A stretch of DNA of 43,101 nt from an uncultured archaeon (GTDB taxonomy: Archaea > Asgardarchaeota > Lokiarchaeia > Sigyniarchaeales > SOKP01), in assembly GCA_964447495.1 (NCBI GenBank), contig CAYUTF010000013.1, positions 1 to 43,101 on the forward strand, written 5' to 3'. The notes beneath the pieces were generated by a model. The model searched no databases. It was not told the DNA's origin and worked only from the letters and a program-made list of their open reading frames with translations. The first letter of the stretch is position 1. Each line of letters begins with the position of its first letter. Of this stretch, positions 30,578-39,480 are shown piece by piece. The translations under genes were made by a program, and so were the position numbers.

Positions 30578-32083
30578 ATGCCGGATTATCATATCAATGA
30601 TAAATGGATTTTAAACCGTGTTTCTTCTCAAAGTGAGACTTTTGATAGTTGGTTATCGAACTTATTAAGTTCTGTTGAGAAATCAATCGAAGATATTGAC
30701 TCTAAAGTCTTCGAAGAGTTGGAAAAACAGAAAGTTGGGATACCAAAAGACCAAATCAAAAAAGAAATAACTAAAGCAAAGAAAGAGATTACAAATGCAA
30801 AAAAAGAGCTTCAAAATTTAGGATCATTAGGAAAGCTTATACCCAAAATCAGCTCTGAAGTCTTTGAATGGTTAGGAAAAAATAGAGAAGAAAATTTTTT
30901 ACTTGAATCGAAAAACGTCAAATTCGATGAATTCGAACCTGATTTTGATCTCGATTTTATTACTGGGAAGAAAAAAAATCTTTCTTCAGCCTTACTTGAT
31001 GTATCTAAAGAACGCGGTATTGATATCAAAGGGGTACTTTATTTAATAGAAGCATTACCCGATTTAGAAGCATTTCTATATAGTACTAGCGTAAAAAAAC
31101 ATTATCGGGATCACACCGAGCATGCTCTACGAGTTGCTGTACTGGGAGATTTCTTACTAGAACAAGATTTTGAGAATGGAGATCTTGCAGGTATTATTTC
31201 AGAGATAACTGGGCTAGATAAGCATTTATTTACAGAAAAATTCTGGTGGATTACAGGTATTATCCATGATTTGGGCTACCCTCTTGGGAAAATGTCCACA
31301 GCCGTTAATTATTCATTGCTAAATCAATTATTAAAATGTTATCCCACATTAGATTTAGAGTTTATTCCCTGTGAAATAGGGTTATCTTGGAAAGGAAAAC
31401 AAGAAGGATACTTAAAAATTATTGAAGAAGGACTTTCAGATGAAGCTCGTTTACTTATAAGAAAAGGAGCAGGTTTTGATATCAAGGAATTTCCTGTTCC
31501 AAATCCAGAAATATTTCTTAAAGAACCAAACGGACATCGTGAATTTGAATTTAAAGGAAATTATAATTTAGATCACGGTGTACTTTCAGCTCTCTGTTTA
31601 TTAAATGGACTTGGATCTCCGGACGAAATTCGAAAGAATGTGGAATATCAAGGGTATATATTAGCAGCTAAAGCAATAGCACTACATAACTTCAAATCAG
31701 TACTTCCAGATTTTAATTTTGATGAGAATCCATTAGCCTTTTTCCTAGTATTAATTGATGAATTACAAGAATGGGGAAGACCTATTCCCCTCCAAGTAAG
31801 AGATACTTACTTCACAACAGAACTTGAAAAGGTAACTCTTTTAGATGAATTAGAATTACATATCGATGAATTTGCATGGTTTATGCAATTCAAGAACGAA
31901 AGAGCAAAGAAGTTGATGAATTTCGATTTTAAGTTATTTTCAAAAAATAAAGGGAATTCTCTCATGAGATTAAATACTGGAGAGAAATTCTCAAGCACCT
32001 CTCTTCACTTACAAGATATTGAATTAGTAAAATCAAAAAAAAAGAAGCAAAATATAATAGCATATAATAAAATTATAATATAA
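30578..32083 (+). CDS. HD-superfamily metal-dependent phosphohydrolase with N-terminal helical/coiled-coil region
   Basis: HYRDHTEHALRV, IIHDLGYP, DHGVLSA, AIALHN, LIDELQEWGR; KKEITKAKKEITNAKKE heptad-like repeat. Confidence 0.8.
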   Translation: MPDYHINDKWILNRVSSQSETFDSWLSNLLSSVEKSIEDIDSKVFEELEKQKVGIPKDQIKKEITKAKKEITNAKKELQNLGSLGKLIPKISSEVFEWLGKNREENFLLESKNVKFDEFEPDFDLDFITGKKKNLSSALLDVSKERGIDIKGVLYLIEALPDLEAFLYSTSVKKHYRDHTEHALRVAVLGDFLLEQDFENGDLAGIISEITGLDKHLFTEKFWWITGIIHDLGYPLGKMSTAVNYSLLNQLLKCYPTLDLEFIPCEIGLSWKGKQEGYLKIIEEGLSDEARLLIRKGAGFDIKEFPVPNPEIFLKEPNGHREFEFKGNYNLDHGVLSALCLLNGLGSPDEIRKNVEYQGYILAAKAIALHNFKSVLPDFNFDENPLAFFLVLIDELQEWGRPIPLQVRDTYFTTELEKVTLLDELELHIDEFAWFMQFKNERAKKLMNFDFKLFSKNKGNSLMRLNTGEKFSSTSLHLQDIELVKSKKKKQNIIAYNKIII

Positions 32084-32095
32084 TTTCAAAACCAC

Positions 32096-33355
32096 ATGAG
32101 CAGAATTTTAACTCCTCAAGATATCCTTCAAAATGTATTAGAAAAGAAAATTTCAAAGAAAGAAGCCTTAAAATTATTAGAAACCCTCATAAATGAAAGT
32201 AATAAAGCCGAAATCCGAGTTGAAGTTATTAAAACAATTGAGAAATTAGTAATTTTTAATGATTCTACTTTTGACATATTAGAAAGGTGTTTATTAGCCG
32301 ATGAATCTGATAACGTACGATTTTCAGCAGCAAGAGTATTAATTGAAAATTTTGACTTAAATGAAGATACTCCTATATTTTATGCTATAGAAAATGAACA
32401 ATCAATATATTTTTTAAAAAATTTGTTAAATCTTAATATTTCCGAAGGAAAACCTATAATAAACGATTTAAAAAATGCTATTCTAAACAAAATCTCTAAA
32501 TTTTATAATCTTAATCCTGCTGATGCAAGATTTATCCTTGATATTGATTATATGGATTATATCAAGTTTAAAATAAATTTTGAGGAATTTGTAGATAAAT
32601 TCCATATTGAAGAAGGTCAAAAACATGATTTACTCAAAGAAAATACAAGGATGGGTTATAAAGGATTAGGAAGAATCGTTAAGACTGAAAATGGTTTTAT
32701 TACGGGTTTAAGGCTTAACGATTTTGAAGAAATACCCAATACTATTCAATTTCTTTCAAAATTAGAATATTTAGAAGTAAAAAGATCTAATTTACAAAAT
32801 TTAGATCAAAGTTATGAAAATCTTCTTAATCTAAAATATTTAATTTTAAGTAATAATGAAATGGATTCAATACCAATATGGGTTTTTGAAGTTGCGAATA
32901 GAGGTAATTACGCTTTAAAATATATCAAATTTGGGGTTGAATCATCTGAAGCCAAGATATTAGGATTATTAGAAATACTTTTGGGACAAGCTCTTGTAAA
33001 ATTAGGTGAGGAGGAATCCTTTAATCACTCTTTATTATATTATTATAAAATAAATTATAATGGAAATATCATTGGAATTAGTATTTCTTCAGATTTAAAT
33101 AAAATCGGAATTTTTCCCGAACAATTATGTTCCTTGAAATTCTTAAAAGAATTATGTTTGCCTAATCAAAATTTAAGGAAAATTCCTGATTGTATTATTC
33201 AATTAGAGCTCTTAGAGACTTTTGATTTACGCAATAATAAAATTAAGTATTTACCTGATACAATCCGAACATTAAAGAATCTTAAAAACTTATTATTAAA
33301 GGGAAATCCACTTCCTAAGGAATTTTTAAAAGTTAATTACAATAAAAAAGAATAA
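32096..33355 (+). CDS. HEAT-repeat plus leucine-rich repeat protein
   Basis: HEAT-like CLLADESDNVRFSAARVL; LRRs LKYLILSNNEMDSIP, LKELCLPNQNLRKIPDCI, LETFDLRNNKIKYLPDTI, LKNLLLKGNPL. Confidence 0.88.
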   Translation: MSRILTPQDILQNVLEKKISKKEALKLLETLINESNKAEIRVEVIKTIEKLVIFNDSTFDILERCLLADESDNVRFSAARVLIENFDLNEDTPIFYAIENEQSIYFLKNLLNLNISEGKPIINDLKNAILNKISKFYNLNPADARFILDIDYMDYIKFKINFEEFVDKFHIEEGQKHDLLKENTRMGYKGLGRIVKTENGFITGLRLNDFEEIPNTIQFLSKLEYLEVKRSNLQNLDQSYENLLNLKYLILSNNEMDSIPIWVFEVANRGNYALKYIKFGVESSEAKILGLLEILLGQALVKLGEEESFNHSLLYYYKINYNGNIIGISISSDLNKIGIFPEQLCSLKFLKELCLPNQNLRKIPDCIIQLELLETFDLRNNKIKYLPDTIRTLKNLKNLLLKGNPLPKEFLKVNYNKKE

Positions 33356-33665: not shown

Positions 33666-33696
33666 TTCCCATCTATGTTAGGGGAAAAAGAGGGAT

Positions 33697-33846
33697 TTAC
33701 TTTTTAGACCGTAACTGCTGTTTTTTTTCTAGTATTTTCTGATAAAGGTCATCGATAGTTAAAGGAGGATTAATTTCTTTTTCTTTGCTTTTCAGTTGGA
33801 TTGCATTTTCAGGACAAACAATAACACAATTTCCACATCCTATGCA
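33697..33846 (-). pseudogene. 3'-end remnant of a 4Fe-4S protein gene homologous to 35335..36444
   Basis: Manual translation CIGCGNCVIVCPENAIQLKSKEKEINPPLTIDDLYQKILEKKQQLRSKK* is 35/49 identical to the C-terminus of the 35335..36444 product. No start codon; an in-frame stop lies two codons upstream. Confidence 0.9.
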
Positions 33847-33908
33847 GAATTAGCAAAATCTCATAGTCCTTTAGGCATATTATAGTATGTATCTTCATGA
33901 ATCAGTGA
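33845..33908 (-). pseudogene. Internal remnant of a CYTH/cyaB gene homologous to 38732..39337
   Basis: Manual translation SLIHEDTYYNMPKGL*DFANS versus intact SLIHEDTYYNMPSGLRDFRFT; in-frame TGA at 33863-33861. Confidence 0.85.
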
Positions 33909-34066
33909 GCACAACCTGATGATGAATGGAAAGTGTTCAAATAAATTAATGAACATAAGTTTTATTTTTTAATGGATAACCCATCCTATTGAAAAAATTT
34001 TTAAATGCAAATCACATAATATTTACTGAATAAAAATTTTTTTCCAATCAATGGGAAGCGAACCCT

Positions 34067-35290
34067 TTGGTCTTATCTCTAATAGGCTGGATAATAGTTC
34101 TATCATATCTCGTTTTACTCAGTTTTACTATCTTTTTCGGAATATGGATGATTTGGAAATCACTAAAACCTAAATCTCGAGTGTTATTATATTATGGTAT
34201 TTCACTTTTAGTAATCGGATGCATGGTTATTTCGGCATCGCTTATTGATTTGTTTACAATTTACATAACAGGCACAAATATGGATAAGGGTCTTTTTGCG
34301 ATATTGTCTTTAATGTGGCTACCCCATCTCTCAGTTTTTATCATTTTATATGCATCTACATTATTAACTCCTACATTAAAATGGAAAATATTTACTGCGT
34401 ACATGATTATGGGGGTAATATTCTGGGTTTTTCTTTTCTCGAATCCTCTTCAATGGGTAGAAGTCTACCATCTTACTGTTCCAGGTCGAGAAACTTTACA
34501 ATTAACATTGAAATTTATTTCACCGTTAACTCTAATTATAGGAGTGTGGGTAGTTGTAATGTTCTTAATCATATTTAGTTTTGCTTATAAAGGGCTTAAT
34601 GCAATAGGTGAAATTAGGAAGAAATACCTTTACTTAGCCATTGGAAACTTAATATTCATTGTCCATCTGGTTTTAAATGGATTTGTAATGTATTACCAAA
34701 CAGTATCTTTCATCGGGATTTTTAGCATTCCTTTTGTTTATATGGGACTCCATCCTAAAAAACCATCAAAACCCAAACGAAAGATTGTTTCTGAGGCTGA
34801 AAAGAAATTTGTCTCCTTTGTTACTGGTAAACATGAAAATGAAAGATTGGTTGAGGACTTTCCTAAAGATTTAAAATTAGAAAAAGATCTTTTAGTGTTT
34901 ATGAGCTACGCTACCAAGGATGCGGATTTATTCAAAATCCAAGAAATTTCAAATAAACTTACTGAAACACCTGAAGTTAAAGATGTTCTATATTGGCAGG
35001 AGGATTTAGATGATAACATCTTCGAATATATGAATGATAATCTAGCAAAATGTCATGTTTTTGTTTTATTTTGTTCCATAAATGCGCTCGACTCTGTGCC
35101 TGTAAAGAAAGAGTGGACAGCAGCGGATGCAATGGGCAAACCTATTATCCCTGTGTTTTATGATACTGAGCATATCCCTCCACTTCTGCGTTCAAGGTTG
35201 GGTTTAGAATATGATTTTTATGATATGAACGGTAATATTCAAGCACTTAAAAATATCATTTTTAAAAAATACAGACGTTTAATTGATTAA
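34067..35290 (+). CDS. 7TM membrane protein with C-terminal TIR domain
   Basis: Seven hydrophobic segments in aa 1-230, Lys/Pro linker, then TIR: VFMSYATKD, WQED, FVLFCS.NALDS.PVKKEW, IIPVFY. Confidence 0.88.
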   Translation: MVLSLIGWIIVLSYLVLLSFTIFFGIWMIWKSLKPKSRVLLYYGISLLVIGCMVISASLIDLFTIYITGTNMDKGLFAILSLMWLPHLSVFIILYASTLLTPTLKWKIFTAYMIMGVIFWVFLFSNPLQWVEVYHLTVPGRETLQLTLKFISPLTLIIGVWVVVMFLIIFSFAYKGLNAIGEIRKKYLYLAIGNLIFIVHLVLNGFVMYYQTVSFIGIFSIPFVYMGLHPKKPSKPKRKIVSEAEKKFVSFVTGKHENERLVEDFPKDLKLEKDLLVFMSYATKDADLFKIQEISNKLTETPEVKDVLYWQEDLDDNIFEYMNDNLAKCHVFVLFCSINALDSVPVKKEWTAADAMGKPIIPVFYDTEHIPPLLRSRLGLEYDFYDMNGNIQALKNIIFKKYRRLID

Positions 35291-35334
35291 ATAAGCAAAA
35301 TAGCTTTTAAACTTTGAAGAGATTGAAAATTATT

Positions 35335-36444
35335 TTACTTTATACCTTTTATTTCTTGTTTTTTCAGTAGAATTTTCTGATATAGATCATCCATAGTTGA
35401 CGGGGGATTTATCTCCTCTTCCTTAGTTTTAAGTAGAATAGCACTTTCAGGACATATTGCAACACAATTTCCACAACCGATGCACCGTTTCCAGTTCACT
35501 TTGGCGATCTCTTTAACTAATTTAATTGCGTCCATTTGGCATCTATCAATACATTTTCCACAACCAGAACATAATTTACTATTTATTTCTGCAAGATAAT
35601 TTGTAGAAACAAAATCTATTGGACGTGGGAATCTTTTTAAACCTGCCAAAACGACACAACAGCATCCACAGCAACTACAGAAAAACTGAGGGTTCAATGA
35701 ATTTGCTGCTTGAAGTACTAAACCCTCTTCTTCGCTTTTTCGTAAGACTTCAAGCGCTTCGTCTCGTGTAATTTGGCGTCCTTTTCCTTGATCTATATAT
35801 ATTTGAGCCAAATGACCAAAACCAAGATGAGTTTCACGTCTTTCTGTCATTTTACATGGCCGATTGGATAGATCAGTAGCCTGACGGCAAAGACAATTAG
35901 CAACCATGATTGGTTCTTCTGCATTTTTGATGACTTCCCTCGCATAATCATACGAAGGTAGTTTATTTTCTATTTCAATACTTTGTTCCACAGGCACAGT
36001 ACGAAATTGTGGAATTTTGGTACCATATGACTCCATACCAAATCCCTCGAGCATATATTTAATTGCTTTTTTCAAAAAATCTTTGGTGAGATTATCCACC
36101 TGTAATTCATACATCCCATACATAAATAAAGAATTAGCATAGTATTTCTTTGATCCCTCAATTTTAGAGTGAATAGTCCCTTTATGCGCCATTGTATCTA
36201 AAATCTTTTCCAACTCTTCTATTGACATACTTGTATCTTTTACACGTTCATATATAGTCTCTAGAGGTTCAAGATTCTGAGACCAAGAAAAATTTAATTT
36301 TGTTGCGATTTTTGCTTCTTTTGGAGTAAAAAGATGTTTTAATACTTCAAATTCAATCCCCGATTTTGTTGTAGGAAAACCTATGGGGAAGCTATCTAAA
36401 TGTTGTTGTAATTCTTTATATACTTTAAGATCATCTTCAATCAT
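35335..36444 (-). CDS. 4Fe-4S dicluster domain protein with N-terminal wHTH-like region
   Basis: PIGFP, LFTPKEA, ANCLCR, CSCCGCCC, CSGCGKCIDRC, CIGCGNCVAICP. Confidence 0.88.
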   Translation of the reverse strand: MIEDDLKVYKELQQHLDSFPIGFPTTKSGIEFEVLKHLFTPKEAKIATKLNFSWSQNLEPLETIYERVKDTSMSIEELEKILDTMAHKGTIHSKIEGSKKYYANSLFMYGMYELQVDNLTKDFLKKAIKYMLEGFGMESYGTKIPQFRTVPVEQSIEIENKLPSYDYAREVIKNAEEPIMVANCLCRQATDLSNRPCKMTERRETHLGFGHLAQIYIDQGKGRQITRDEALEVLRKSEEEGLVLQAANSLNPQFFCSCCGCCCVVLAGLKRFPRPIDFVSTNYLAEINSKLCSGCGKCIDRCQMDAIKLVKEIAKVNWKRCIGCGNCVAICPESAILLKTKEEEINPPSTMDDLYQKILLKKQEIKGIK

Positions 36445-38731: not shown

Positions 38732-39337
38732 TTAACTTTTCTTTTTCATTATCTTTTCAAGTATCAATTCTAAATAAGATTTTTGGATAGAATCTCGCTC
38801 TCGATATCCAAACAATGATAGAAAATTAAATAATACATCTCTAGTGCTCGCAAGATCATTATGAGATTTAGCCATTAATTCTACTTCAATGAAATATTTC
38901 CCGAGAATTGATAAATAGTCTATTAATGCTTCAATTAGAAATCCCTCATACTCAAACTCATATAAGTCTCTTTCTTTCTTTACAGTTAGAACTTGCTGAA
39001 ATCCTAGAACCGAAAATATCTCCTTCATCTCTTCAACATTTTCAACTTCTACCTCAATTTCTTTACGAGATTTGGAAATCTTATCAAGCTTTTTACCTTT
39101 ATAAGTAATATAACTCTTCCTTTTTCTTGGAAGTTCTTCATTTTCCTTATTAAATTCAATCGAATTTCGAATTCTTAATGCTTCATCCGTAAACCTAAAA
39201 TCTCTTAAGCCTGAAGGCATATTATAATAAGTATCTTCATGGATTAATGACAATTTATAAATACCATTCTGTTCTTTAAATTTCTTACGAATTAAATTCG
39301 GATCTGAAATCTGAATTTTAATTTCTACTTCAATCAA
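38732..39337 (-). CDS. cyaB: CYTH-domain protein (class IV adenylate cyclase/triphosphate tunnel metalloenzyme)
   Basis: EVEIK, EDTYY, DEALRIR, ITYKG, SRKEIEV, VKKER, FIEVE, SYLEL; TTG 39337 gives the typical MIEVEIK start. Confidence 0.9.
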   Translation of the reverse strand: MIEVEIKIQISDPNLIRKKFKEQNGIYKLSLIHEDTYYNMPSGLRDFRFTDEALRIRNSIEFNKENEELPRKRKSYITYKGKKLDKISKSRKEIEVEVENVEEMKEIFSVLGFQQVLTVKKERDLYEFEYEGFLIEALIDYLSILGKYFIEVELMAKSHNDLASTRDVLFNFLSLFGYRERDSIQKSYLELILEKIMKKKS

Positions 39338-39480
39338 GATAAGATTCTTTTTAGTTGATAACAATTATAATTTAGTAATTAATATTAAGTATTAATAGTT
39401 TAAATTTGAGCTGATAAAGAATTTCTCAAATTTCAGAAACAGCACATGAACTGGCTAAAAAATATGGTTATTTACCATAC

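Follow-up and report, generated by a model that had tools for sequence, protein, structure and literature searches.

TIR domains link the immune systems of bacteria, plants and animals. Those that cleave NAD+ (NADases) are common effectors of abortive infection, and in these enzymes an aromatic Trp lies four residues before the catalytic Glu (the WxxxE motif). To our knowledge, the membrane receptors that carry TIR domains are single-pass proteins, and most prokaryotic TIR proteins examined to date are soluble sensors from defence operons. We describe here a gene that joins a TIR domain to seven predicted transmembrane (TM) helices. It occupies positions 34067-35290 (+ strand) of a 43,101-nucleotide stretch of DNA (hereafter the window; G+C about 30%; contig CAYUTF010000013.1, assembly GCA_964447495.1) from an uncultured archaeon of the Asgardarchaeota (Lokiarchaeia, Sigyniarchaeales).

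The layout of the protein recalls Toll-like and IL-1 receptors, which likewise run from the outside to a cytoplasmic TIR domain, and the TIR domains of MAL, MyD88 and the IL-1R family match its own in fold (Z 12-14). However, the window protein has seven helices instead of one and no leucine-rich repeat (LRR) or Ig ectodomain; it also keeps the TIR glutamate, and no adaptor TIR was found in its genome. We favor, with a probability of about one half, the view of a one-component receptor enzyme, in which a cue would be sensed on the outer face of the seven-helix (7TM) part and NAD+ would be consumed by the cytoplasmic TIR domain, either to deplete it or to produce a signal. What is new is a TIR protein with a previously undescribed, modular 7TM head that is shared with RING-like, kinase and stand-alone forms. 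We found no description in the literature of an Asgard 7TM-TIR protein or of its 7TM module; preprint supplements may list it. A 7TM-tethered TIR domain in the closest prokaryotic relatives of eukaryotes would provide a test of whether a TIR enzyme can be gated from outside, and it bears on what Asgard TIR proteins do.

A seven-helix membrane protein with a cytoplasmic TIR domain

The open reading frame (ORF) starts with TTG and comprises 407 codons for 407 amino acids, the stop being included in the coordinates. A word-indexed protein search returned 195 matches, about 70 of them full-length (400-445 amino acids, 33-89% identity). Every named match belongs to Promethearchaeota, Lokiarchaeota, Thorarchaeota or Hodarchaeota, that is, to metagenome-assembled genomes (MAGs) of Asgard archaea. 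When 28 sequences are aligned, the ATG-started N-termini of the homologues (M-L-S-x-x-G-W) stand in register with the TTG-started (M)VLSLIGW of the window protein, the common motif being LSxxGW. The closest orthologue, at locus L005, is 92% identical in nucleotides over 1275 bases; it is likewise TTG-started and has an Ile at the place of the window's Met28. Because the homologue N-termini align and L005 combines a TTG with an Ile at position 28, the TTG start is supported, and with it the 407-residue, seven-helix reading as judged from these alignments. The database version of the protein, P0002, has 380 amino acids (93% query coverage) and is 27 residues shorter, which corresponds to 34067-34147 of the window; given its length, it probably begins at Met28, a start that would drop TM1.

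Comparison with L005 gave a ratio of nonsynonymous to synonymous substitution rates (dN/dS) of 0.25 over the whole gene; the 7TM part by itself has 0.24, the TIR domain 0.14 and the linker about 1.2, this last value coming from 11 changes only. The overall value indicates that the gene is under purifying selection and is therefore not a chance frame. At the level of sequence, these comparisons establish a real 7TM-TIR gene with purifying selection on both of its domains.

Seven hydrophobic stretches are visible in the Kyte-Doolittle profile, and an AlphaFold2 model built on 28 homologues (mean predicted local distance difference test, pLDDT, 82.4; predicted template modelling score, pTM, 0.57) places seven helices in the sensor part (residues 1-230, 34067-34756). 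TM1 spans residues 5-33 (34079-34165) and TM2 residues 38-68 (34178-34270), whose outer end and following loop carry the family motif D61...T68-G69-x-N71. TM3 covers residues 74-100 (34286-34366) with a kink at 82-85, and TM4 residues 102-125 (34370-34441). The outside loop between TM4 and TM5 is the longest, with 27 residues (126-152, 34442-34522); it is modelled as a beta-hairpin with strands at 131-134 and 145-148 and contains a conserved Pro...Gly motif. TM5 (residues 153-178, 34523-34600) leads into a conserved inside loop, G-x-I-R-K-K, and is followed by TM6 (residues 182-206, 34610-34684) and TM7 (residues 211-228, 34697-34750). Between TM7 and the TIR domain lies a polybasic stretch with a low-confidence linker (residues 229-274, 34751-34888), which includes the basic sequence HPKKPSKPKRK, six Lys or Arg within residues 229-245, and a short conserved helix at 243-253.

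Averaged over the 28 members, the predicted inside segments contain 3.8 (TM1-2), 2.7 (TM3-4), 5.3 (TM5-6) and 7.4 (after TM7) Lys plus Arg residues, against 0.0 (N-terminus), 0.2 (TM2-3), 0.8 (TM4-5) and 0.5 (TM6-7) in the predicted outside segments. According to the positive-inside rule, loops rich in Lys and Arg lie on the cytoplasmic side. Since the counts follow this rule, the N-terminus is placed outside and the TIR domain in the cytoplasm. A first-pass annotation of the window, made from its letters and reading frames, had described this gene as a 7TM receptor fused to a TIR domain, with seven TM segments, a long TM4-TM5 loop and a basic linker. All of these elements are present where it had put them, and the residue counts and helix model speak neither for an extracellular TIR domain nor for a number of helices other than seven.

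The same annotation had the TIR domain begin at about 34889, which is exactly the first nucleotide of the first modelled TIR strand, at residue 275. The domain extends over residues 275-406 (34889-35284). Pfam TIR_2 (PF13676) matches residues 277-378 with an E-value of 9.7e-12 and 45.9 bits, compared to a cut-off of 28 (49.1 bits in a scan of the genome). The modelled fold is of the flavodoxin-like alpha/beta type, with strands at 275-280, 304-308, 331-336 and 360-364 and intervening helices. It matches many solved TIR domains with Z 12-14 over 115-133 residues, including those of MAL (Z 14.2), Caenorhabditis elegans TIR-1 (14.0), SARM1 (13.7; root-mean-square deviation 2.8 A, 20% identity), Cat1 (13.6; 2.0 A) and two ThsB structures (12.9 and 12.2). 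In sequence searches of the PDB, phmmer found only 9m0n (E 0.57) and a profile of full-protein homologues only the prokaryotic SEFIR domain 5y8e/5y8f (E 0.0018), while PADLOC and NCBIfam models gave only weak TIR-type matches on the whole protein (PADLOC TIR-NLR, E 0.0026).

Glu349 (codon GAG, 35111-35113) is part of the sequence SVPVKKEW; in alignment it corresponds to the Glu of the 9m0n TIR domain (SEWVKKE) at the catalytic position, after strand C. All 28 full-length homologues in the alignment have this residue. Its earlier assignment to the catalytic position holds, and the Glu motif is kept in 14 of the 15 TIR-type representatives of the 7TM module described in the next section. Other invariant TIR positions include F278, S280, Y281, T283, D285, D316, N317, C329, S337, S343, P345, V346, K348, W350, T351, S376, R377, L378 and G379, with Trp350 directly after Glu349. 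As reported by Toshchakov and Neuwald (PMC7075850, in the excerpt available), the NADase activity of bacterial, archaeal, plant and SARM1 TIR domains depends critically on the TIR Glu. The window's domain thus resembles the NAD+-cleaving TIRs of the TIR_2 and SARM1/TIR-1 types in its above-threshold TIR_2 match, its Glu and its fold; it differs from them in being tethered to a 7TM part and in having a Pro in place of the Trp of 9m0n. A similar comparison can be made with Thoeris, which pairs the TIR sensor ThsB with an effector activated by a signal: here too a TIR domain with a Glu at the catalytic position could make an NAD-derived signal. However, the ThsB_TIR profile scores 14.4 bits on the window protein, below its cut-off of 21.2, PADLOC reports no Thoeris match, the protein is membrane-embedded, and across 12 loci (the window, two paralogues from the same genome and nine loci from other MAGs) no conserved effector gene stands at its side.

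Between Glu-bearing members, identity reaches 62-91% in the TIR domain versus 32-72% in the 7TM part. Together with the dN/dS values (0.14 versus 0.24), these sequence identities indicate that the TIR domain is under tighter constraint than the sensor. The same type of TIR domain (57-68% identity over the domain) occurs in other Asgard proteins behind LRR, Arf/Ras-like GTPase and tetratricopeptide repeat (TPR) heads (P0080, P0083, P0099, P0101 and P0104). In the protein search and in a scan of species representatives, this TIR subtype was met in Asgard-named records only.

The seven-helix module and its partners

No Pfam family matches the 7TM part above threshold in any of 12 members taken from the window and the loci, and NCBIfam and PADLOC likewise returned nothing for the 7TM part of the window protein. 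We built a profile of the 7TM part alone from these 12 sequences (A2) and searched it against 1.84 billion cluster representatives. This retrieved 489 representatives with an E-value of at most 0.001, of which 287 reached 1e-10 and 143 reached 1e-30, with lengths clustering near 235, 350, 410 and 500 amino acids. After the shortest fragments were dropped, 135 of the 150 matches listed (of the 489) were aligned and sorted by motifs: 71 have a Cys-rich, RING-like tail (consensus C-x2-C...C-x2-C...C-x2-C...C-W-x-C), 35 are shorter than 265 amino acids and consist of the 7TM part only, 12 end in a TIR domain, four in a histidine kinase, and 13 in something else. A scan for the Glu motif raised the TIR-type proteins to 15, three of them from this last class. 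Pfam assignments in the 135 proteins are C1_2 in 24, zf-C3HC4_3 in 16, TIR_2 in 15, Prok-RING_1 in 8, HisKA_7TM in 7, HisKA in 4 and HATPase_c in 4, the best zf-C3HC4_3 match being above cut-off (P0168, E 3.5e-9, 36.8 bits). In the ESM Atlas, the nearest cluster is represented by a 236-residue hypothetical protein and has 587 members, mostly Promethearchaeota.

P0130 (named Lokiarchaeota), P0178 and P0192 have the architecture 7TM-HisKA-HATPase_c, and P0131 is 7TM-PAS-HisKA-HATPase_c. The membrane part at the N-terminus of a sensor kinase serves as its input; because the 7TM module sits N-terminal to histidine kinases, it would be an input domain here too. Based on these architectures, the 7TM part is best read as an autonomous, exchangeable input module. 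That it is a receptor had been suggested from the window protein, and the kinase fusions of its relatives, with and without PAS, lend this suggestion independent support. Such fusions could also serve to find the ligands of the module.

The commonest form of the module among the 135 proteins, about 350 amino acids in all, bears a zinc finger with eight Cys of RING/B-box-like type (P0122, P0164, P0168 and 68 others). By its Cys pattern, this form is possibly an Asgard membrane receptor with a ubiquitin-ligase-type tail. Three proteins of the unsorted class (P0195, P0217 and P0188) end in an alpha/beta domain of about 130-150 amino acids without family assignment, P0195 showing a faint longin-like match in Pfam (Intu_longin_1, E 0.0087).

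Of the best-kept positions of the module, D61, N71 and G140 are on the outer face. Among the non-gap residues of the 135 members, D61 is kept in 92%, N71 in 91% and G140 in 90%; T68 and G69, also on this face, belong to the best-kept positions as well. Positions K34, K105 and K185-K186 of the inner loops are also well kept, as is Y225 (93%) at the cytoplasmic end of TM7. A buried Glu/Arg pair recurs in the module: position 120 in TM4 is Glu in 80 of 135 members, position 214 in TM7 is Arg in 109 of 135, and both residues occur together in 68. The window protein has Trp at the former (34424-34426) and Ser at the latter (34706-34708), and the pair is retained by no more than 10 of the 28 7TM-TIR proteins.

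We surveyed the distribution of the module in an even sample of 201 genomes from the phylum, calling it at an E-value of at most 1e-10. It is present in 41 of them: 38 of 40 genomes of the window's family, two of three in another family of that order, and the source genome. At this threshold it was absent from the 157 sampled genomes of 25 other families, which are samples and no proof of absence. Carrying genomes hold one to eight copies. Frames long enough for a TIR fusion (at least 400 amino acids) were seen only in the source genome (three) and in its congener G104 (two), that is, in five of the 150 matches listed out of 151. A scan of species representatives yielded full-length 7TM-TIR genes at nine loci, spread over six MAGs that all bear Promethearchaeota or Hodarchaeota in their titles. 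The Thor- and Hod- names given by submitters suggest a somewhat wider spread than that in the sample drawn by GTDB taxonomy.

The first-pass annotation had called for a comparison of the fold with HisKA_7TM-type sensors, rhodopsins and G-protein-coupled receptors (GPCRs). The helices do superpose on those of GPCRs and rhodopsins, while specific kinship to either of them, or to HisKA_7TM, is not established. In VIA-align comparisons, all seven helices superpose on the class C GPCR GABA-B (Z 14.7, 215 residues, 3.8 A); an adhesion GPCR gave Z 14.1 and microbial rhodopsins Z 12.5-13.5, with nearly all of residues 1-235 covered, and Foldseek matched GPCRs with E-values of 5.5e-4 to 1e-2. These Z values, at 4-12% identity, fall in the range (about 13-14 by the program's own note) that unrelated helical bundles can reach by arrangement alone. 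A retinal protein of the microbial rhodopsin type is ruled out, as TM7 (residues 211-228, VSFIGIFSIPFVYMGL) contains no Lys. HisKA_7TM (PF16927) is similar in size (about 230 amino acids) and in its seven helices, and the present module precedes HisKA-HATPase_c in 4 of the 135 relatives. Weak collinear PF16927 matches appear in 7 of these 135 (E-value of at most 0.01, best 3.3e-6; profile positions 2-214 of 224), and in one neighbouring ESM Atlas cluster 10% of members carry PF16927. However, three of the scores in the relatives (22.3, 21.6 and 17.6 bits) are below the cut-off of 28.6, no match with an E-value of at most 1 is obtained in the window protein or any of the 12 A2 members, and hhalign against a thin alignment of four true HisKA_7TM sequences from related genomes returned probabilities of 0.7% and 0.5%. 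The collinear matches hint, at the sequence level, at a distant kinship.

On a larger scale, one may tentatively propose that a single Asgard order owns a GPCR-like receptor family with exchangeable tails (TIR, RING-type and possibly ubiquitin-ligase, histidine kinase and others), in which the 7TM-TIR form turns an outside cue into NAD+-derived signalling. If true, this form would directly embody a "Toll logic on a 7TM scaffold", and the whole family would be a prokaryotic example of eukaryote-style receptor wiring. A module found in 38 of 40 genomes of one family, with TIR, RING-like or kinase outputs, offers a way to study how these archaea perceive their environment. Asgard "7TM proteins" and a structural cluster called "class C GPCR" are named, but not described further, in the available excerpt of a 2026 preprint (10.64898/2026.10.28.762692).

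Paralogues and the role of the TIR domain

The genome to which the window belongs (3.8 Mb in 223 contigs, 98% complete) carries the module six times, namely in three TIR fusions, in two stand-alone copies whose frames end directly after TM7, and in one distant copy. Four of its genes match TIR_2, namely the window gene, two further 7TM-TIR genes on contigs C206 (407 amino acids) and C47 (405 amino acids), and a gene on C33 for a 257-residue protein with hydrophobic stretches, as judged by eye; no soluble adaptor TIR was found among the four. The C47 paralogue (L004:1465-2682, - strand) reads SASIKNQW at the active-site motif, where Gln replaces the catalytic Glu; the SYATKD, DNI and SRLG motifs are likewise lost from it. 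P0141, a representative of a 50%-identity cluster from elsewhere, shares this Gln form, which therefore constitutes a maintained subfamily and not a one-off pseudogene. Compared to its nearest relatives at L006 and L007, which keep the Glu, the C47 paralogue is 46-50% identical in the TIR domain and 51-53% in the 7TM part, the reverse of the family norm. From these sequences, the pattern of an active enzyme accompanied by a dead paralogue favors an enzymatic role of the Glu-bearing forms.

In the mechanism that we propose, the seven-helix module, with its outer-face N-terminus and best-conserved loop motifs, would sense an extracellular or membrane cue. The signal would run through TM7, the polybasic juxtamembrane stretch and the short helix to the cytoplasmic TIR domain. 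Activation would most likely involve a change in receptor self-association; a homodimer prediction with two full-length copies scored 0.00, which counts neither for nor against self-association. The activated TIR domain would then consume NAD+, resulting in depletion or in a signal derived from ADP-ribose.

Several observations weigh against this receptor-enzyme model. At the place of the Trp found in 9m0n four residues before the Glu, the family has the invariant Pro345. According to the excerpt available of PMC7075850, the TIR Glu is conserved in upwards of 70% of TIR domains overall; as these include families known as scaffolds, the Glu is necessary rather than sufficient and constitutes no proof of catalysis. 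MAL, a scaffold, scores (Z 14.2) level with the NADase TIRs (Z 13.6-14.0), so the fold does not tell an enzyme from an adaptor. As regards a reader of the TIR product, no neighbour family at all is common to the 12 loci, where synteny is limited to subgroups, and LSDAT_prok (SLOG) was not found in the 98%-complete genome. Finally, the window copy lacks the Glu/Arg pair of TM4 and TM7, and judging from this its sensing may differ or be lost.

The TIR domain might instead be an assembly domain and not an enzyme, co-assembling with other TIR domains as Toll-like receptors do with MyD88 and MAL. We consider this unlikely, although the same TIR type (57-68% identity) behind LRR, GTPase and TPR heads is what mutually docking domains would give, the highest-scoring individual fold match is to the TIR filament of MAL (Z 14.2), and the Glu-less paralogue retained in the genome could be a non-catalytic partner. 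Against an assembly role, three of the four TIR_2 genes of the genome are 7TM fusions and no soluble adaptor was found among the four, and both the invariance of the Glu and its joint loss with other motifs in one subfamily fit an enzyme better. If the TIR domain is an enzyme, its purpose could be antiviral or abortive: the 7TM part would detect virus attachment or envelope damage and the TIR domain would deplete NAD+ to stop the cell. The patchiness of the TIR fusion, with TIR-length frames in 2 of 41 module-carrying genomes (five of the 150 matches listed), the differing context of the L005 orthologue and the decayed fragments that flank the gene are all typical of defence genes. However, PADLOC gives the protein only its weak TIR-NLR match (E 0.0026) and nothing relevant for the neighbours, which are ordinary metabolic genes, and three paralogues in one genome together with a module present in 38 of 40 genomes of the family look more like a housekeeping sensor. 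We consider this antiviral or abortive role rather improbable.

The logic could also be reversed, the TIR domain sensing or regulating and the 7TM part acting as a pore, a transporter or no more than an anchor. As a precedent, the excerpt available of a preprint (10.64898/2025.12.03.692087) describes CBASS, Pycsar and Thoeris systems in which killing effectors that span the membrane are coupled to TIR or nucleotide-sensing domains, and the window protein has no ligand-binding ectodomain. We nevertheless give this arrangement little credence: in front of histidine kinases only an input role of the module is possible, the abundance of stand-alone copies (with one to eight module copies per genome) is unlikely for a toxic pore, the best-conserved motifs face outward, and the fold matches are to receptor and rhodopsin bundles over 215-224 residues. 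The receptor-enzyme model thus remains the one that we favor.

Genomic surroundings

Upstream of the gene, the window encodes an NTP-transferase, a 501-residue protein without Pfam match, a HEAT/LRR protein and a 94-residue ORF; downstream, on the opposite strand, lie genes for a 4Fe-4S protein, a methyltransferase, a nitroreductase and a CYTH protein. These neighbours are ordinary metabolic genes. PADLOC, applied to seven of them, found nothing relevant, its only matches being one of methyltransferase type and a weak BrxP-like Fe-S match. The DNA datasets that carry the gene are salt-marsh and sediment metagenomes, and no RNA dataset is listed among those holding the sequence.

Remnants of neighbouring genes lie just upstream of the gene. 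A decayed fragment at 33697-33849 (- strand) copies the C-terminus of the 4Fe-4S gene (35335-36444), with 74% identity over 151 nucleotides, so that the two copies form a direct repeat (33696-33846 and 35334-35484) bracketing the TIR gene. A second decayed frame at 33861-33968 (- strand) copies the N-terminus of the CYTH gene (38732-39364), the DNA repeat covering 33855-33908 (54 nucleotides, 81% identity). These fragments suggest that this place long ago underwent either a partial duplication with a deletion or else an insertion. The L005 orthologue shares only 33939-35208 with the window and is masked beyond. Given the decayed fragments and the differing context of the orthologue, the place of the gene has undergone rearrangement, and the gene behaves like an independent cassette.

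On the strand of the TIR gene, the 501-residue protein (30578-32083, +) shows an HD-like His-Asp motif by eye and is followed by the HEAT/LRR protein (32096-33355, +). The adjacency of an LRR protein may or may not be meaningful, given the LRR-TIR fusions in other Asgard genomes. The surroundings of the paralogues present features of their own. A gene for a small Ras/Rab-like GTPase (L004:2850-3353, - strand) adjoins the C47 paralogue, and relatives of this GTPase occur close to the orthologues at L006 and L007. Of the four SIR2_2 matches in the genome, the one examined closely, on C33, is ruled out as a ThsA-type signal reader, since the protein is a SIR2-NACHT-TPR fusion. This NLR-like protein of 1846 amino acids (L060:7731-13271, +) is encoded about 5 kb from the C33 TIR gene (L060:2344-3117, +), and beyond it lie an LRR gene and a UvrD-type helicase gene. 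The C33 TIR gene may reside in a defence-type neighbourhood.

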